Shown here: positions 2,409-52,819 of the stretch, piece by piece
Layout: each line of letters starts with the position of its first letter
Numbering within the stretch: the first letter of the stretch is position 1
Assembly: GCA_024451685.1 (NCBI GenBank)
Contig: JAMXCW010000009.1
Coordinates: 3,872 to 67,871 of the forward strand
Source of the DNA: Candidatus Bathyanammoxibius amoris
GTDB taxonomy: Bacteria; Planctomycetota; Brocadiia; Brocadiales; Bathyanammoxibiaceae
Direction: 5' to 3'
DNA length: 64,000 nt
Translations under genes and position numbers: made by a program
The notes under the pieces: generated by a model
Seen by the model: the letters and a program-made list of their open reading frames with translations, nothing else
Databases searched by the model: none
Told to the model about the DNA's origin: nothing

Positions 2409-2471
2409 GTCATTGCGAGGGGCGCAACCCCGTGGCAATCTCTGAGATTGCTTCGCTTCGCTCGCAATGAC
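2409..2471. repeat. 63-bp palindromic element, family B: GTCATTGCGAG...GCAATCTC arm abutting its inverted copy (gene-less version of the GIY-YIG cassette)
   Basis: Left arm 2409-2442 and right arm 2444-2471. The right arm is identical over 28/28 nt to the right arm at 31373-31400. Confidence 0.85.
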
Positions 2472-3848: not shown

Positions 3849-4367
3849 ATGCACATAATAATAGACGGATATAACCTTATCTTTGCCGTTCCTGAACTCG
3901 TAGAGGTCATGGACAAAGGGAAAATGGAGACGGCCAGGGAGGTCCTGCTGGCGGCGCTGTCAGATTATGAGGGCAAGAGCCGTCAGAAGGTCACCGTGGT
4001 ATTCGACGGCAGGGATAAGGAGGGCGATGAATACATGGCCATTTCACAGAAGCAGCACCACGGGGGTGTAAACGTCATCTTCTCAAAGGGTACCACCGCC
4101 GATGAGGACATAAAGGATATTATCAACTCCTCGCCCAATACGAAAAATATGTGCATAGTTACCTCGGACAAGAGTATTATCCAAACGGCCAGGTCTTCAG
4201 GCTGCAAGCTCGCCGAACCCGGAGAGTTTTATAAAAAGATAACACCGGCCCCCAAAAAAGGGCGCGCCTCGACGCGCGGCGAACCACTGGTTAAGTACCG
4301 GGAAGTACCTGAAGAACAGGTGGATTACTGGCTAAAAGTGTTTAAGGCGAAACGGGAAAAGGAATAA
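3849..4367 (+). CDS. NYN/YacP-like (PIN-related) RNA-binding or nuclease domain protein
   Basis: The internal ATG at 3849 gives MHIIIDGYNLIF, the typical YacP N-terminus. It starts 2 nt after the pyrC stop. Confidence 0.65.
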   Translation: MHIIIDGYNLIFAVPELVEVMDKGKMETAREVLLAALSDYEGKSRQKVTVVFDGRDKEGDEYMAISQKQHHGGVNVIFSKGTTADEDIKDIINSSPNTKNMCIVTSDKSIIQTARSSGCKLAEPGEFYKKITPAPKKGRASTRGEPLVKYREVPEEQVDYWLKVFKAKREKE

Positions 4368-4376
4368 GGCGCCACG

Positions 4377-4793
4377 GTGACATCAGACTCTGACCATACC
4401 CGTATAAAATTGCTGCGCTGGCTCCCCGCCATAATATGGGCCGCCGTCATATTCTGGTGCTCTTCGAGGTCCACCTCTCCCATACCCCTTATACCCATTC
4501 CTCATGCGGACAAGGGCATCCACTTCACGGAGTTCTTCATCCTTTGCTACTCGATATGTCATGCGCAGGGGCCATCCGGCCAAAATTTTAGAAGAATCAT
4601 GTGGCGTGCCGTATTAATGACTTCCGTCTACGGTGCCCTGGACGAATACCACCAGAGCTTCACGCCCGAGAGGACGCCGGAGGTGGCGGACTGGATGGCC
4701 GACACCACCGGTGCGGTCGTCGCGGGTTTTGTATGGCTCACAAAGCAAGGTCAACCATCAGACCTCTCCAGGAGTGACAGTCATGTTCCTTAG
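4377..4793 (+). CDS. VanZ-like family membrane protein
   Basis: GTG start, 4 predicted TM segments, and YGALDEYHQSFTPERTPEVADWMADTTGA, typical of the VanZ family. Confidence 0.65.
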   Translation: MTSDSDHTRIKLLRWLPAIIWAAVIFWCSSRSTSPIPLIPIPHADKGIHFTEFFILCYSICHAQGPSGQNFRRIMWRAVLMTSVYGALDEYHQSFTPERTPEVADWMADTTGAVVAGFVWLTKQGQPSDLSRSDSHVP

Positions 4794-5208
4794 ACTTTTT
4801 TTGCTGTTTACAATCGTGCCCCTGATAGAGTTGTATCTTTTGCTCAAATTGGGGGGCTATATCGGCGCCGTTGCCACGGTCGGGGTGGTAATAGGTACGG
4901 GGATAGCGGGCGGGCTGCTGGCAAAGAGCCAGGGGCTGGCCGTCCTCCGTCAGGCGCAAGGGGAATTAGACCTGGGGAGGATACCCGCCGAAAGCCTCTT
5001 TGACGGGGCACTTATATTGTTAGCAGCCACGATGCTTATCACCCCCGGTCTTATAACCGACTGCCTCGGCCTGTTACTCCTCATACCCTGGACCAGACGG
5101 AGGTTCAAATCCTGGCTCAGGAGAAAACTCGAGGAAAAGATCTCGCGCGGCGAAATACGTGTCTATACTCATTTCGGAGACTTTGGTGGTGACAGGGGTT
5201 CCGTATGA
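4783..5208 (+). CDS. fxsA: FxsA family cytoplasmic membrane protein
   Basis: ATG at 4783 gives MFLRLFLLFTIVPLIELYLLLKLGGYIG, the canonical FxsA N-terminus. It overlaps the vanZ end by 11 nt. Confidence 0.8.
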   Translation: MFLRLFLLFTIVPLIELYLLLKLGGYIGAVATVGVVIGTGIAGGLLAKSQGLAVLRQAQGELDLGRIPAESLFDGALILLAATMLITPGLITDCLGLLLLIPWTRRRFKSWLRRKLEEKISRGEIRVYTHFGDFGGDRGSV

Positions 5209-5870
5209 ACGCTTTTAAGATGCCCGGAGACATAAGGGCCGTTATGCTCGACATGGACGGGGTGGTGATAGACGGTATGCCGTATCACCAGAGGGCGTGG
5301 AAAGAGGCATTTGCCACGGTGGCGATGGAGGTCACAGACACCGACATATACCTGAAGGAAGGCATGGACCAACTGGAGACCGTTGTAGAGCTTTGTGGGG
5401 GAAAGGGGGTCTCTATGAGCGACGAAGACATGAGAAAGGTAATCGACCTCAAGAACCATATCCTCAATTCCATATTCAAGGTCCGTCTCATCCCCAACAT
5501 TAAAGAATTTCTCTCCCGGCTTAAACACCTTGGGCTTAAACTGGCGCTTGTAACCGGCACGAATGAGGACGTCGTGGATAGGATTCTTCACGAGGAAAAG
5601 GCCTTGAAAGACTACTTTGACGTGGTGGTGACGGCAGCTACCGCCTCGCACAAAAAGCCCGACCCCGAACCCTACCTGAAGGGCGTGGAGCTCTTAGGGA
5701 TTGACAAAGAACACTGCCTGGTAATAGAGAACTCCCCGGCCGGTATCACGTCCGCCAAGCGGGCGGGTCTCGTGTGCCTGGCCCTGACCACGTCCCTGCC
5801 CGGGAAACACCTGAGCGAGGCCGACGGCATCTTTCCGGGCCTGGAAGAGGTTTCAAGGCTTTTTGATTAA
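5205..5870 (+). CDS. HAD-superfamily hydrolase (beta-phosphoglucomutase-like subfamily IA)
   Basis: DxDG motif MLDMDGVVIDG, LVTGT, KKPDPEPY and ENSPAGI motifs. It overlaps the fxsA stop by 4 nt. Confidence 0.8.
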   Translation: MNAFKMPGDIRAVMLDMDGVVIDGMPYHQRAWKEAFATVAMEVTDTDIYLKEGMDQLETVVELCGGKGVSMSDEDMRKVIDLKNHILNSIFKVRLIPNIKEFLSRLKHLGLKLALVTGTNEDVVDRILHEEKALKDYFDVVVTAATASHKKPDPEPYLKGVELLGIDKEHCLVIENSPAGITSAKRAGLVCLALTTSLPGKHLSEADGIFPGLEEVSRLFD

Positions 5871-5995
5871 AAATACCGTTACTTAATTTACCGGGCCGTT
5901 CCAGTATCCGGGACACACCCGTTGACACAACCCGCCTTCTCATGTATCCTCGAAGCATCCATCTGTTACCTGCTGTCTTTTAGGAGAACCGGACC

Positions 5996-6478
5996 GTGAC
6001 GATAAACAACAATTTTACGATAAAACTCTGTTGCGCAATTGCCGTCTTATCATTCTTGACGTTATTGCTGCTGCCGTATAATCCGACCAGCGCCCAGCAC
6101 ATAGACGTCTTCAACATACCCAGGGAAGATGCCAAAGAAAAAACGTTGGAAGACGTACCCGAACTGGCAGAGGTGGAGGTTACCGACTCCTATACTTACA
6201 AGGTTATGGTAAAAAAAGAACGCCTCGACGATGGCACCGTCTTTGCAAGAGAACTCGAAATCACGGCGCTCTCGGACGAGGAAAAGCCCCCGTATCACTG
6301 GGGTCAGGTGGATTACTACGACCGGAGGAATATCACGCAGAGGCAGGTGCGTAAGACAGATTTTGCCAAGTGTTTCAGGACGCGGACGGGCGTATTATAT
6401 TACCTGCCTAACAGTAAAAAGGTGGTGGACTGGGGCCGCTGGACCATGTGGGACTGTCGCCCGAGCAACGCACCGTAA
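5996..6478 (+). CDS. Hypothetical secreted protein
   Basis: GTG start 9 nt after AGGAG, with an N-terminal hydrophobic signal-like segment. No recognisable domain. Confidence 0.45.
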   Translation: MTINNNFTIKLCCAIAVLSFLTLLLLPYNPTSAQHIDVFNIPREDAKEKTLEDVPELAEVEVTDSYTYKVMVKKERLDDGTVFARELEITALSDEEKPPYHWGQVDYYDRRNITQRQVRKTDFAKCFRTRTGVLYYLPNSKKVVDWGRWTMWDCRPSNAP

Positions 6479-6523
6479 GCAGCCGGCGCCTTACATATAT
6501 GCCCGGACCTTTTTGACTCAGGA

Positions 6524-7366
6524 GTGTACACTCACCCTGACGGAGACCCTGTGGTGAGGAATTTTTGCTTTATATGCCTCGGTATCCTTATCGTAATCCT
6601 TACACTGTTCCTGTGGCCGCATTCTTTCGCGGACAATGAACGGGGCCTGCTTGAGTCGGTCATAGAGGGCCGGGCACGGGTGATAGACCTCACGTATCCG
6701 TTAAACGGGAAAAACCCTTACTGGCCGGGTCCCCGGTACCGGCCTTTTAAGTACGAGGTGATTTCCAGGCTTGAGACCGATGGGGTATATTCCGGCAGCT
6801 ACTCCACCCCCGAACACCTGGGCACACACGTGGACGCGCCCAACCACTTCGGACTCAATCAACCGTCCGTGGACCAGTTGCCCCTCGACCAGCTCATGGG
6901 TCCCGCCGCGGTAATAGACATACGTAAACAGGCGGCCTCAGACCCGGACTACCGGCTCTCCGTGGACGATATCAAGAAATGGGAGGCGCAAAACGGCCGT
7001 ATACCGAATGGCGCCATAGTGCTCATGCACTCCGGCTGGGGGGAGAGGTGGGCAGATGGTGACAGGTACAAGAATGCAGACCCCTCCGGAACCCTGCACG
7101 CTCCCGGCTTTTCAGAGGAAGCCGCACTCTTACTCGCCGAAGAGAGGGACGTAAAGGCCATCGGGGTTGACACGCTGAGCGTGGACAACGGGCCGTCCAA
7201 GGACTACCCCGTGCATCACGTGTTTAATTCCAGGGGCAGGTGGATGCTTGAGAACCTTGACAACGTAGGAAAACTCCCACCCAAAGGAGCCATGCTTATC
7301 GTGGCGCCCATAAAGATAGAAGGCGGCTCAGGCGGCCAGGCCCGTGTCTGGGCTATCACCCCTTGA
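6524..7366 (+). CDS. Cyclase family protein (kynurenine formamidase-like)
   Basis: HLGTHVDAPNHF metal-binding motif and an N-terminal membrane anchor or signal. The start is uncertain (GTG 6524 or GTG 6554). Confidence 0.7.
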   Translation: MYTHPDGDPVVRNFCFICLGILIVILTLFLWPHSFADNERGLLESVIEGRARVIDLTYPLNGKNPYWPGPRYRPFKYEVISRLETDGVYSGSYSTPEHLGTHVDAPNHFGLNQPSVDQLPLDQLMGPAAVIDIRKQAASDPDYRLSVDDIKKWEAQNGRIPNGAIVLMHSGWGERWADGDRYKNADPSGTLHAPGFSEEAALLLAEERDVKAIGVDTLSVDNGPSKDYPVHHVFNSRGRWMLENLDNVGKLPPKGAMLIVAPIKIEGGSGGQARVWAITP

Positions 7367-9828: not shown

Positions 9829-10635
9829 AGCCTGATAAATCAGGCGGCTACAATGTTGGTTGTAAATAGACCGGGCAACTACAAGGGTGTTATTGGGCGA
9901 TTTGATTTGTAGCCGCCCCATTTATGGGGCGAAGATAAATAGCCTGATAAATCAGGCAGCTACAGTGTTGGTTGTAAATGGCCCGGGCAACTACAATGGT
10001 AGTTATGCTTTTGGGTTTGTAGCTGCCCCATTTATGGGGCGTTTGTATTGATAGCCTGATAAATCAGGCAGCTACAGTTTGTAAAACTGTTCAAATTCTA
10101 TTATTTCTTTAACAGGATTGTTCTTAATATATTCTCTAATCTTGTTCAGGGCTTTCTCGTTTCTAATGACATGTTCATAGTAGTTGGGTTGCCAGACCCT
10201 AAATCCTGCTTCTTTACTTACTTGAGCTTTCAGCCGCCGTACTATCTCACCCAGTGGAATGGAACAACCATTTAAAATTATAATTAGATGTAAATGGTTG
10301 GGCATGATACAAAAGTAGTCCACCTCTGTACCTTCAATACGATATAGCCTCTTCATAGCTGCCCTAATAATACCTTCAAGGCCTACAAGGTGTGGTTTAT
10401 TGTGTCTAGAACAGATGGTTACAAAGTAGGGGCCGTTAGCGGAGTAGTTGTAATGCTTTAATCTGATGTCTTTAATGTTTTTCATTAGTCTTGTTGTCTA
10501 ATTTGTTTGTAGCTGCCCCATTTATGGGGCGTTTGTATTAATAGCCTGATAAATCAGGCGGCTACAAGGAAAATAAATGTAGCTGCCCCATTCATGGGGC
10601 AAAAATAAATAGCCCGATAAATCGGGCAGCTACAG
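9829..10635. mobile_element. RAYT gene embedded in clusters of its cognate REP hairpins (family C)
   Basis: H1 = AGCCTGATAAATCAGGCRGCTACA at 9829, 9941, 10053, 10543 and 10611. H2 = TGTAGCYGCCCCATTTATGGGGCG at 9908, 10018, 10508 and 10578. The GCTACA/TGTAGC tails are mutually complementary. The transposase stop codon lies inside the third H1 copy. Confidence 0.8.
10072..10485 (-). CDS. REP-associated tyrosine transposase (IS200/IS605-like Y1 transposase, RAYT)
   Basis: HUH motif in PNHLHLIIIL, plus YYEHVIRNEKALNKIREYIKNNPVK. It is visibly more AT-rich than its neighbours. Confidence 0.85.
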   Translation of the reverse strand: MKNIKDIRLKHYNYSANGPYFVTICSRHNKPHLVGLEGIIRAAMKRLYRIEGTEVDYFCIMPNHLHLIIILNGCSIPLGEIVRRLKAQVSKEAGFRVWQPNYYEHVIRNEKALNKIREYIKNNPVKEIIEFEQFYKL

Positions 10636-16828: not shown

Positions 16829-16910
16829 GTCGTTCTGAGGGAACGAAGTGACCGAAGAATCTGACAATGCGTGTCAGATTCTTCTCCCCCTCAGGCGGGC
16901 CACAATGACA
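16829..16910. repeat. Palindromic doublet, divergent variant of family B (GTCRTTSTGAGG...GAAGAATCTGACA and its inverse)
   Basis: Arms 16829-16866 and 16872-16910 are inverted complements around the loop ATGCG. Confidence 0.7.
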
Positions 16911-30065: not shown

Positions 30066-30845
30066 ATGAACATAATTGCCTGCGCAAGGCAAGTGCCTGC
30101 ACTTGAATCCACTATCAAACCACAGTCCTCTCCCCCGTTTATTGACAGTTCCGGCCTGACGTATATGACCAACCCGTTCGATGAGTTCGCGGTTGAGGAG
30201 GGTATACGGATAAAGGAGAGGCTGGGAGGGGGTGAATTGACCGTGGTGGCGGTGGGGCCTGAGGATGCTGACCAGATGCTGCTAAACGCGCTCGCAATGG
30301 GCGCGGACAGGGCCGTGCATGTAAACGTTAAAGAAGAAATTACGCACCGGCTGGACTCTTTTACGGTCGCGTCCCTGCTCAGGGATGCGATTAGTGAGAA
30401 AGGGAAGGGGTTTGATATCATCTTGTGCGGGAAGGAGGCCGTTGACGACCGGCAGGGCGCGGTGGGGATAGAACTGGCCGAGCTTCTGGGGCTGCCCCAC
30501 GTGGCGGCGGTGACCGGGCTGGACATAGATTTGGAGACAAAAAGGGCCACAGCCCGCAGGCAGATTGAAGCGGCGTGGGAGATTGTCGAGTGTCAACTGC
30601 CCGCGGTGATTACCTGTCACAAGGGCCTGAACGACCCGCGCTACCCGCCGCTGCCGGGAATTATGAAGGCGCGCGCGAAACCGCATGAAGACATAACAGA
30701 CCCGAAAATGCCGGCGGCGAAACTATTACTCACAAGACTTGAAAATCTGCCCCGGAGACAGGCAGGCAGGAAGCTGGAGGGGAACGTCCCGCAGGTGACC
30801 GGGGAGCTCCTGCGCCTGCTGCACGACGAGGCCAGGGTGATTTAG
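30066..30845 (+). CDS. etfB: Electron transfer flavoprotein beta subunit
   Basis: MNIIACARQVP N-terminus, NPFDEFAVEE and ILCGKEAVDD motifs. Confidence 0.85.
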   Translation: MNIIACARQVPALESTIKPQSSPPFIDSSGLTYMTNPFDEFAVEEGIRIKERLGGGELTVVAVGPEDADQMLLNALAMGADRAVHVNVKEEITHRLDSFTVASLLRDAISEKGKGFDIILCGKEAVDDRQGAVGIELAELLGLPHVAAVTGLDIDLETKRATARRQIEAAWEIVECQLPAVITCHKGLNDPRYPPLPGIMKARAKPHEDITDPKMPAAKLLLTRLENLPRRQAGRKLEGNVPQVTGELLRLLHDEARVI

Positions 30846-30896
30846 TTCTTACGGTGAATTGGTGTGCAGGGACGGGTTTTTGAATCGTGCCTGAGG

Positions 30897-30959
30897 CAGA
30901 CCCCCCATTTGTGGGGCGGGCCTGTCCGTGGGCGGACAGACCTAAAGGTCTGTCCCTAC
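30897..30959. repeat. REP-like hairpins (an H2-like family C variant plus a family A-like variant)
   Basis: CAGACCCCCCATTTGTGGGGCG (30897-30918) and GGACAGACC-TAAA-GGTCTGTCC-CTAC (30934-30959). Confidence 0.55.
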
Positions 30960-31025
30960 GAGAACCGTAGAACTTCATAAATAGGTTTAATAGCTTGCGT
31001 CTCGAGGTACGCAATATTGCTTAAT

Positions 31026-31400
31026 GTCATTGCGAGGGACGAAGGCCCGAAGCAATCTCGGAGGTTTTTTGGGTAATTGTCTAATGGGAAGCAAGCAATA
31101 TTACGTCTACATAATGACCAACAAAAGAAATACTGTTCTTTATACCAGGGTAACGAACAACCTGAAAAAGCGGACTTATGTGCATAAAAACAAGTTGGTT
31201 AACGGCTTCACCAAAAAGTACAACGTGGGTAAATTGGCGTACTGTGAGGTCTTTGATAGTGTGGAAACTGCAATACGCAGGGAGAAACAAATCAAAAGCG
31301 GCTCAAGACAAAAGAAGGTGGCTTTAATAAACAGGGTTAACGGAGAATGGAGGGATTTGTACGAGGAAATATGAGATTGCTTCGCTTCGCTCGCAATGAC
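31026..31400 (+). mobile_element. GIY-YIG nuclease cassette bounded by family B inverted repeats
   Basis: Left arm GTCATTGCGAGGGACGAAGGCCCGAAGCAATCTC (31026-31059) and right arm GAGATTGCTTCGCTTCGCTCGCAATGAC (31373-31400). The AT-rich ORF lies between them, and its stop codon overlaps the right arm. Confidence 0.75.
31084..31374 (+). CDS. GIY-YIG (URI-domain, COG2827-like) nuclease family protein
   Basis: YYVYIMTNKRNTVLYTRVTNNLKKRTYVHKN...GFTKKYNVGKLAYCEVF...AIRREKQIKSGSRQKK. The YIG element is degenerate (YTR). The alternative ATG at 31024 reads through the repeat arm. Confidence 0.85.
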   Translation: MGSKQYYVYIMTNKRNTVLYTRVTNNLKKRTYVHKNKLVNGFTKKYNVGKLAYCEVFDSVETAIRREKQIKSGSRQKKVALINRVNGEWRDLYEEI

Positions 31401-31518
31401 GGTTTGAGGTTAAGGTGATTTACTGTGTGGGTGAGATATTGTATACGGGGGCCTCTTTTGTTTATTAGCTTTGCAACTAAAACCAGTCTGCATCCAGAGG
31501 CACACTATGTTATTTTGT

Positions 31519-31556
31519 GTCATTGCGAGTCCACCTCAGGTAGACGAAGCAATCTC
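31519..31556. repeat. Solo family B arm
   Basis: GTCATTGCGAGTCCACCTCAGGTAGACGAAGCAATCTC. Confidence 0.75.
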
Positions 31557-31591: not shown

Positions 31592-32590
31592 ATGCCACAA
31601 GAAATCCTGGTCATAACAGAGCAGAGGGGCGGAGAGTTTAAGAACGTAAACCTTGAGGTCATCGGGGAGGCGCAACGCCTCTCAGATGCCTGCGGGCTGG
31701 GTTTCAGCGTCTTTTTGTTGGGCCATAAGATTGATGAGCTAACCGGGCCCCTGCTCAATTATGGTGCCGGTGAACTTCTGGTGGCGGATTCTGAGATTTT
31801 GAAGGAGTACAATAACCAGGTCTATACGCACGTCCTGGCGGGTGAAATCTCCGGGCGTGAGAAAAAACCCGCGGCCATCCTCCTTCCCGCCACCGCAACC
31901 GGCAAAGACCTGGGCCCCCGGCTGGCGGCCCGGCTTGGAGGCGCCTATATCGCCGACTGTATCGCGCTCGATATAGACGGCGATTATTTGTTGGAGGCAA
32001 GGCGTCTTGTGTATGGTGGCAGTGTCATCGCCACAGTGAAGAGTGTCTGTCCCGAATCACAGGTCGCCACGCTCAGGCCAAATACCTTCGACAGGGCGGA
32101 GATTATTACTGATAAAGAAACCGCCGTTACCGGGATAAAGGCCGGACCACCGCCCAACCTGCGGACGGTCCTTAAAGAGGTTGTGTACGAGAAAGAACGC
32201 GGCATGGACATCGCCGAGGCCAGGGTGGTCATCTCAGGCGGCAGGGGCATGAAGGGGCCTGAGAACTACGGTATACTCGAGGAGCTGGCGGGCCTTCTAG
32301 GCGGAGCGGTGGGCGCCTCAAGGGCCGCGGTGGATGCGGGCTGGAGACCCGCGGACACACAGGTGGGCCTTACAGGTAAGACGATTGCCCCTGAGCTATA
32401 CATAGCCTGCGGCATCTCCGGCTCCCCGCAGCACCTGGCGGGGATGATGTCGTCCAGGTGTATAGTCGCCGTAAACAAAGACCCCGACGCGCCCATCTTC
32501 AAGGTGGCCGATTACGGCGTAGTAGCGGACCTGTTTGATGTAATTCCCCTGATGATAGAGGGGCTAAAGAAGAAGAATAATAAGGAGTAA
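31592..32590 (+). CDS. etfA: Electron transfer flavoprotein alpha subunit
   Basis: MPQEILVITEQRGG N-terminus and the C-terminal FAD motif YIACGISGSPQHLAGM. A TTG at 31577 is an alternative start. Confidence 0.85.
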   Translation: MPQEILVITEQRGGEFKNVNLEVIGEAQRLSDACGLGFSVFLLGHKIDELTGPLLNYGAGELLVADSEILKEYNNQVYTHVLAGEISGREKKPAAILLPATATGKDLGPRLAARLGGAYIADCIALDIDGDYLLEARRLVYGGSVIATVKSVCPESQVATLRPNTFDRAEIITDKETAVTGIKAGPPPNLRTVLKEVVYEKERGMDIAEARVVISGGRGMKGPENYGILEELAGLLGGAVGASRAAVDAGWRPADTQVGLTGKTIAPELYIACGISGSPQHLAGMMSSRCIVAVNKDPDAPIFKVADYGVVADLFDVIPLMIEGLKKKNNKE

Positions 32591-52741: not shown

Positions 52742-52768
52742 GTCATTGCGAGCAAAGCGAAGCAATCT
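52742..52768. repeat. Solo family B arm
   Basis: GTCATTGCGAGCAAAGCGAAGCAATCT. Confidence 0.75.
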
Positions 52769-52819
52769 AGACTGTAACGTCGGGCACGGAGACCCGACGC
52801 TACAAAAACTTCCATTAAG

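Follow-up and report, generated by a model that had tools for sequence, protein, structure and literature searches.

A GIY-YIG nuclease gene between inverted hairpin repeats in an anammox-order planctomycete, a probable member of the Ssn/SRM system

We have analyzed a stretch of 64,000 nucleotides (nt) from contig JAMXCW010000009.1 of Candidatus Bathyanammoxibius amoris, hereafter the window, and specifically a small GIY-YIG nuclease gene that is found there between two inverted hairpin repeats. The gene and its two arms form one unit. Judged from its sequence, this locus is very probably a member of the Ssn/SRM system, in which a GIY-YIG nuclease gene is enclosed by inverted copies of its cognate hairpin repeat. 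The Ssn/SRM pairing and the CGTC-type REPs were already known; new here is a member in an anammox-order planctomycete, and we add the boundaries of the cassette, evidence that orthologous sites have gained and lost it, and the correspondence between nuclease clades and hairpin types. Taken alone, the window copy is an ordinary, possibly weakened, member of the family. The cassette is made up of the following parts.

31026 to 31400, plus strand: whole cassette of 375 bp (left hairpin unit, leader, ssn-like open reading frame (ORF), right hairpin unit)
31026 to 31059, plus strand: left arm, a long-type SRM/CGTC-REP unit, GTC-ATTGC-GAG-[GGACGAAGGCCC]-GAA-GCAAT-CTC
31084 to 31374, plus strand: ssn-like gene, coding for a single-domain GIY-YIG nuclease of 96 amino acids (Pfam PF01541, E 8e-14)
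31373 to 31400, minus strand: right arm, the minimal 26-nt unit plus TC, which reads GTCATTGCGAGCGAAGCGAAGCAATCTC on the minus strand

(Chenal et al., 2025, Nat Commun, PMC11893778) described the Ssn family as single-domain GIY-YIG proteins of about 94 amino acids (CDD cd10448). The characterized enzymes bind the hairpin repeat solely as single-stranded DNA (ssDNA), do not cleave double-stranded DNA (dsDNA), and cut a few nucleotides 5' of the repeat, which is named NTS in Neisseria (CGTCATTCCCGCGMAVGCGGGAATCYRG) and SRM in general (PMC11893778). The GTC before the palindrome was the most important element for cutting and the C after it for binding, while mutations at Y6, Y17 and E64 abolished the activity of SsnA (PMC11893778). 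SRMs were detected near 71% of the homologue genes and on both sides in 42%; the role shown in Neisseria was the restriction of transforming ssDNA, and the authors likened NTS-ssnA-NTS to an insertion sequence or to a REP/RAYT pair (PMC11893778). An earlier note on this DNA had pointed to the locus as an element for which it was aware of no mechanistic description. Both the gene-hairpin pairing and the enzyme activity are in fact published (PMC11893778). From the side of the repeats, (Di Nocera, De Gregorio & Rocco, 2013, BMC Genomics, PMC3733652) described the CGTC-tagged REPs, short extragenic palindromes found mainly as head-to-head dimers, with no enzyme known at that time; dRS3 of Neisseria and RPE of Rickettsia belong to them.

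The PF01541 match spans residues 5-77 of the 96 and no second domain was found in the protein. The G+C content of the ORF is 40% against 58% in its neighbours, which agrees with the small AT-rich GIY-YIG ORF first noticed here. When a plasmid collection was searched by tblastn, the window protein found a 94-amino-acid ORF of Neisseria gonorrhoeae (E 7e-18) that sits among 12 canonical NTS copies in 1.5 kb. (PLSDB records NZ_CP119140.1 and NZ_CP119142.1 are 2.17-Mb N. gonorrhoeae chromosomes filed as plasmids.) The identity between the window protein and the N. gonorrhoeae SsnA orthologue was 43% (pairwise E 2e-27), and with this orthologue the value lies within the limit that the Ssn paper sets for homology, E < 1e-10 to Neisseria SsnA. 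The catalytic Y6, Y17 and E64 (located in the N. gonorrhoeae orthologue) correspond to Y9, Y20 and E67 of the window protein, which retains Y9, Y20, R30, H34, E67 and N86 (alignment A1). In the same alignment two segments differ between clades, MTNK/LASK and SGSRQKK/KWNRKWK, and these are candidates for the residues that read the stem. Another homologue, 45% identical, has a canonical NTS adjoining its start codon. No homologue was found in N. lactamica and N. mucosa, which were reached via NTS loci. No NCBIfam model matched the protein, no phage matches to it were found, and the sole match in a PDB sequence search was the UPF0213 protein 1zg2 (BH0048) with an E of 7e-4; the relationship with UPF0213/YhbQ and Slx1-type proteins, which share the minimal GIY-YIG fold, is therefore distant. 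We know of no repeat association for proteins of these two types. The genome that contains the window (G000; 2.07 Mb in 27 contigs, roughly 95% complete) has this one small GIY-YIG gene, and its other PF01541 match is an ORF of 630 amino acids that we take to be UvrC from its length.

The consensus of the hairpin unit is GTC-ATTGC-GAG...GAA-GCAAT-C and the cassette arms are inverted copies of it. The left arm (31026-31059, plus strand) has the layout GTCATTGCGAG-N12-GAAGCAATCTC; the earlier note had located this arm properly with a spacer of 15 nt, and we find 12. For the right arm (31373-31400, minus strand) the layout is GAGATTGC-N9-CTCGCAATGAC, the complement with an N9 spacer, exactly as it had been described. 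The TGA stop codon (31372-31374) shares bases with the right arm, so the overlap noticed before is real, and the stop codon also adjoins the right arm in the homologues of Campylobacterota, Dehalococcoidales and Desulfatiglandales. When compared to the published Ssn/SRM loci, the window locus is alike in protein size (96 against about 94 amino acids), in the single GIY-YIG domain with its Y/Y/E catalytic residues, in the inverted hairpins at both sides of the gene and in the tens of extra copies elsewhere in the genome. Besides, the window unit keeps the published key determinants, the GTC 5' of the stem, the ATT...AAT at the stem base and the C after the stem. It differs in the inner stem, which has GC, a GAG/GAA internal loop and a variable apical hairpin where NTS has CCCGC/GCGGG, in its host and in a glycine-to-arginine change at residue 22 (G22R) of the protein.

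Gene and repeat were compared in 31 homologue loci, taken from relatives and other phyla and examined with a strict hairpin detector. At least one GTCA-tagged hairpin was present within about 100 nt of the gene in 28 of the 31, and hairpins on both sides, inverted, in 17; arm-flanking of the GIY-YIG copies, which the earlier note had proposed to test, is the case for 28 loci if one hairpin suffices and for 17 if both are asked for. In the maximum-likelihood tree, all 14 ATTGC-armed proteins fell in one clade (support 96/89) whose hosts are three Brocadiales families, Campylobacterota, Dehalococcoidales, the cyanobacterium Microcoleus and Desulfatiglandales. In the sister clade the arms are ACCCT at the left and ATTCT at the right; farther out in the tree, arms of the ATGCTGAA type or of the canonical NTS type (ATTCCCGC) occur. 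Hence it is the protein clade, and not host taxonomy, that the arm stems follow. The changes in stem sequence always keep the pairing, and this is the best evidence for the hairpin, folding energy being a poor one.

Selection acts on both components. The ratio of nonsynonymous to synonymous change (dN/dS) was between 0.05 and 0.17 among the Brocadiales copies. Between phyla the synonymous sites are saturated and the arms are still almost identical, which indicates that the arms are constrained in their own right. In a set of 41 genomes of the order, the median number of ATTGC units was about 21 in those with an ATTGC-clade gene and 2 in those without (Mann-Whitney p 0.0008). The number of gene copies varies from 0 to 30 within one order and the host range is patchy across phyla.

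Outside the cassette, the window has further units of this kind. They are listed here together with the two genes that give the context of the insertion site.

2409 to 2471: gene-less head-to-head doublet, with a long unit at 2409-2442 (plus strand) and a 26-nt unit at 2444-2471 (minus strand)
16829 to 16910: diverged doublet of the sister ATTCT/AGAAT stem type
30066 to 30845, plus strand: etfB, upstream neighbour of the cassette
31519 to 31556, plus strand: third unit, whose apical loop holds a further small hairpin, TCCACCTCAGGTAGA; directly upstream of etfA
31592 to 32590, plus strand: etfA, downstream neighbour of the cassette
52742 to 52769, plus strand: solo minimal unit GTCATTGCGAGCAAAGCGAAGCAATCTA

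The gene-less doublet at 2409-2471 was known from the earlier note, and its right unit (2444-2471) is indeed identical to the right arm of the gene at 28 of 28 positions. The solo arms at 31519-31556 and 52742-52769 had also been seen, the latter with its end at 52768. As to the diverged doublet, it is present where it had been placed, and its stem belongs to the ATTCT type, with 28 copies in the genome. Each 11-mer half of the unit occurs 6 times in the window when about 1 is expected, and none of 100 shuffles reached 6. A genome-wide census of GTC-tagged hairpins, of the kind that the earlier note had suggested, found 23 units of the ATTGC/GCAAT type in G000 (0 in the reversed sequence used as control) and 28 of the ATTCT/AGAAT type (1 in the control). 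ORFs of at least 150 amino acids cover 80% of the genome and contain only 1 of the 23 ATTGC units and 5 of the 28 ATTCT units, so the units are extragenic. The tag is NGTC, usually TGTC or CGTC, the unit length goes from 26 to 36 nt, and the base outside the tag, mostly T at the left end and A at the right end, merely extends the palindrome.

About five head-to-head doublets with the tags pointing outward are found in G000. In each, a long unit of 31-34 nt, whose apex carries an additional hairpin (GGGG...CCCC or similar), is paired with a minimal 26-nt unit GTCATTGCGAGCGAAGCGAAGCAATC, and the same asymmetry is found in the arms of the cassette. Of the 36 head-to-head doublets listed for the relatives, roughly 30 are paired in this way, the spacers measuring 16 or about 29 nt. 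Folded as ssDNA, the doublet at 2409-2471 gave -20.9 kcal/mol (z -5.3). Literature searches on the repeat sequence and on GIY-YIG with REP/REPIN produced nothing relevant.

Some other features of the repeats were apparent. The orphan sister family, GTCATTCTGAG...GAAGAATC, has 28 copies in G000, a genome 95% complete in which we found no GIY-YIG gene of the cognate ATTCT clade; the congener G002 carries an ATTCT-type gene, whose left arm is of the ACCCT and whose right arm is of the ATTCT type. A small hairpin (TCCGCCTCAGGCGGA or TCCACCTCAGGTAGA) lies within the apical loop of some SRM units (window 31530-31545; relatives L003, L005 and G004) and is also found free in neighbouring spacers, so that it looks like a hairpin nesting in the tips of others. 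In marine-sediment metagenomes (runs X2-X4, window 31369-31425) the summed contig depth was 4,000-7,000 at the 26-nt unit versus 10-40 at the flanks, indicating that this unit is very abundant across the organisms in those samples. The joints of left arm to right arm seen in the metagenomes are other doublets, from other loci or organisms, and not excision products of the window site.

The comparison of orthologous sites gave evidence of gains and losses of the cassette. The gap between etfB and etfA is about 6 nt in G004 and G006, which belong to two other genera of the family, and 52 nt with no unit in G008. In G000 it measures 746 nt and contains the full cassette plus the third unit. The congener G002 has at this place a single unit identical to the left arm of the window, followed directly by the etfA leader, and its sequence past the retained unit is orthologous to that past the window unit at 31519-31556. 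In G003, another congener, the site consists of the left arm, the last 27 nt of the ORF (ggagggatttgtatgaggaaatatga; nine codons) and the right arm, and this allele is an internal-deletion derivative of the cassette. In the same way, G013 has a cassette between two genes, and in G000 the orthologues of this pair enclose an 85-nt spacer free of units; the site of the G001 cassette is also unit-free in G000. The three copies of G008 and the one of G000 are located at four different loci, and their similarity is limited to the span from outer GTCA tag to outer GTCA tag (window 31025-31400, or 742-1117 of the G000 extract), with 79-84% identity and a length of 375 bp in G000 and in two of the G008 copies. 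An apparent pair of copies in G040 (contigs C12 and C19) was discarded, being 100% identical over the 1.87 kb compared and hence an assembly duplicate, not two insertions.

Between G000 and G008, the synonymous divergence (dS) of the gene was 1.2, similar to that of etfB (0.93), indicating long residence and not recent transfer. The window copy has been resident at the etfB-etfA site since before the genus diversified. The data are compatible with mobility, the cassette being an old and slowly moving unit that was gained at and lost from different sites; that the nuclease itself drives this movement is unproven. The earlier note had proposed an autonomous element with non-autonomous derivatives, and the single unit ending at the GTCA tags, the deletion derivative in G003, the gene-less doublets with the asymmetry of the arms and the occupied and empty sites support that picture in part, autonomy being unproven. 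The comparison of insertion sites that it had in mind also gave occupied and empty orthologous sites among relatives, and no target-site duplication.

By homology to SsnA, the protein would bind the hairpin unit only as folded ssDNA, through the ATTGC/GCAAT stem, the 5' GTC tag and the 3' C, and would then cut this strand by hydrolysis, a few nucleotides to the 5' side of the GTC tag. Because the arms are inverted, the predicted cuts lie just outside the cassette and on opposite strands. The other genomic units and the head-to-head doublets would be further target sites. Cleavage at the arms might let the cassette and the doublets be copied to new sites. To our knowledge GIY-YIG enzymes are capable of hydrolytic cleavage only and have no strand-transfer activity; as such a hydrolase cannot join strands, the copying would need host replication or repair. 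There may also be a role at the level of the host, for example the cutting of incoming repeat-bearing ssDNA by analogy with Neisseria. In its strongest form, SRM-ssn-SRM would be a truly autonomous mobile element of about 375 bp with a hydrolytic GIY-YIG single-strand nuclease as its sole protein and the gene-less doublets as its non-autonomous derivatives. We regard this as a possibility to be held tentatively.

Compared with known systems, the cassette takes features from several. As the CGTC REPs (PMC3733652), the units are extragenic palindromes, 26-36 bp long and tagged with (C/T)GTC at the end (22 of 23 outside long ORFs), head-to-head dimers predominate with conserved spacer lengths (16 or about 29 nt) and no transposase is nearby. 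In contrast to that paper, which reported no enzyme, the window dimer encloses a GIY-YIG gene, and the tag in the window genome is TGTC more often than CGTC. With the REP/RAYT pairs (REPtrons) it shares a single-copy gene between inverted hairpin repeats that also populate the genome as singlets and doublets, and a long vertical residence with occasional movement; REPtrons, however, have a Y1 HUH transposase and GTAG tags, where the cassette has a hydrolytic GIY-YIG nuclease and GTC tags. The ends of IS200/IS605 elements are likewise recognized as folded ssDNA hairpins with no target-site duplication, but both of their hairpins are on one strand and a covalent tyrosine intermediate does the strand transfer, whereas the window cassette has its arms on opposite strands and an enzyme without known joining activity. 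Finally, of what an autonomous transposon with MITE-like derivatives should display, the cassette has inverted ends at non-orthologous sites and empty orthologous sites, and neither target-site duplication (17 elements) nor recent near-identical copies (paralogues at 79-84%).

Several observations weigh against the reading of this locus as an Ssn/SRM member or as a mobile element. The published SRM pattern, HGTCWYN(0-2)YYVSBRHN(0-5)WNVSBRGN(0-2)RNCYNB, had no match in the window, and genome-wide it gave 16 matches, none a real unit, versus 13 in the reversed control. Actually, the window units fit both flanks of the pattern (5' HGTCWY and 3' RNCYNB) and mismatch in the inner stem, so ATTGC and ATTCT are subtypes missed by the published search. 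The comparison with SsnA was carried out with the N. gonorrhoeae orthologue and not with the N. meningitidis protein. For the ATTGC clade, the substrate specificity is predicted by homology. Single units fold weakly (-2.7 to -4.9 kcal/mol with nearest-neighbour DNA parameters, z not significant). Several relatives have 25-90 units with no cognate gene detected, and G000 itself has its 28 ATTCT units without an ATTCT-type gene. Residue 22 of the window protein is Arg (AGG, 31147-31149), a position that holds the Gly of the YIG motif in at least 90% of the homologues, and the contigs of related metagenome populations read G at 31147, coding for Gly, where the window has A. This change may impair the window allele or, alternatively, R22 may be a rare variant or an error. 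As to mobility, no target-site duplication was seen at the 17 elements, the intergenic spacers between genera being too diverged for a base-level comparison of target sites. G000 has one gene copy, and the G008 paralogues, at 79-84% identity, give no sign of recent movement.

These last points would be readily accommodated if the gene were a domesticated host nuclease with dispersed targets and no self-mobility, trimming for instance repeat-bearing ssDNA in transformation, repair or replication, and relocating only via ordinary inter-repeat recombination or horizontal transfer. The Neisseria role, restriction of transforming ssDNA, is of this kind. The strong purifying selection and the divergence similar to that of a housekeeping gene (dS 1.2 vs 0.93 for etfB) go in the same direction, as do the single gene copy and the absence of target-site duplications, and recombination between two units in direct orientation could account for the G002 allele. 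On the other hand, at several unrelated loci the outer tags are exactly where the conserved unit stops, cassettes are located within tight operons (etfBA, and the second gene pair in G013) whose orthologous sites elsewhere are empty, and the patchy host range across phyla, with copy numbers from 0 to 30 in one order, is hardly that of a domesticated gene. We consider this explanation possible, if rather unlikely.

The window gene could also be a decaying relic, already inactive through G22R, with the units as fossils that have at most mRNA-hairpin effects on the etfBA transcript. The Arg at residue 22, where the Gly of the YIG motif is nearly invariant and related populations have Gly, would fit with this, and so would the loss of the gene from the etfB-etfA site in the congeners G002 and G003. 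But the ORF is intact, all the catalytic residues tested in SsnA are present, a single-base change may be no more than a rare variant or stem from an error in the assembly, and dN/dS is low in the whole family, which leaves the relic a doubtful, if possible, description of the window copy.

A homing-type selfish gene appears quite improbable. Here the doublets would be a pre-existing REP family, and the gene would cut empty doublets and be copied into them by repair from a gene-bearing template. The gene-less doublets share the layout of the arms, a long unit and a 26-nt unit, and hence look like empty homing sites, and classical homing endonucleases occur among the GIY-YIG enzymes. However, the last nine codons kept between the arms in G003 indicate gene loss from a full cassette and not an uninvaded site, and G000 has about five empty doublets, yet one gene copy. 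Characterized Ssn enzymes do not cut dsDNA, and the window protein has a single domain, with no separate DNA-binding domain and no phage matches, while GIY-YIG homing endonucleases have an extra DNA-binding domain, cleave dsDNA and are found in intron or phage contexts. As for the idea that the small GIY-YIG gene stands by chance next to an abundant repeat with which it has no relation, 20 of the 23 ATTGC units are indeed not adjacent to the gene, but it is refuted by the arm hairpins near the gene in 28 of 31 homologue loci, by the arm type following the protein clade and by the pairing published statistically for the family (PMC11893778).

With the window locus as a very probable member, the Ssn/SRM family is extended to the anammox-order Planctomycetota, and since the whole ATTGC and ATTCT repeat subtypes escape the published pattern, the reach of the system has been underestimated. 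The match of clades and stems provides natural pairs of enzyme and site for mapping specificity, which is relevant to the proposed Ssn ssDNA tools. The comparative data (boundaries, empty sites and deletion derivative) also make it testable whether a bare hydrolytic nuclease mobilises CGTC-type REPs. Were the autonomous reading true, the CGTC REP superfamily would gain its long-missing mobilising enzyme, and there would be a prokaryotic transposon class dependent on host replication or repair for joining.

A few observations concern the surroundings of the cassette and its derivatives elsewhere. A scan for promoters and terminators gave no signal above chance, and in the Rfam scan of the whole window at gathering thresholds no family was matched. 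The etfB-etfA spacer at 30860-30965 has nested GC-rich hairpins with CCCTAC ends (GTAG-type REPs), and similar GTAG-type hairpins fill the orthologous spacer in G002, G003, G008 and G009. The window also has a REPtron (9830-10634), where a Y1/RAYT-like ORF of 137 amino acids (10072-10485, minus strand; PF01797 match, HLHLII motif) has inverted GTAG-tagged REPs on either side (TGTAGCTGCCCCATTTATGGGGC / GCCCGATAAATCGGGCAGCTACA). With this RAYT locus and the Ssn locus in one window, the genome holds both repeat-enzyme systems. In the complete genome G026 of the same order (G026:C1, loci L170-L183) there are at least 14 copies of a 199-nt arm-to-arm derivative that keeps about the last 45 codons. 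Each of them is part of a composite repeat that measures about 575 nt and has direct repeats of about 112 nt on both sides, so that the amplified unit there is larger than the cassette. One of these copies (L179) has the cassette in the opposite orientation with respect to the flanks, and tandem clusters are found near 1.336 and 1.396 Mb.

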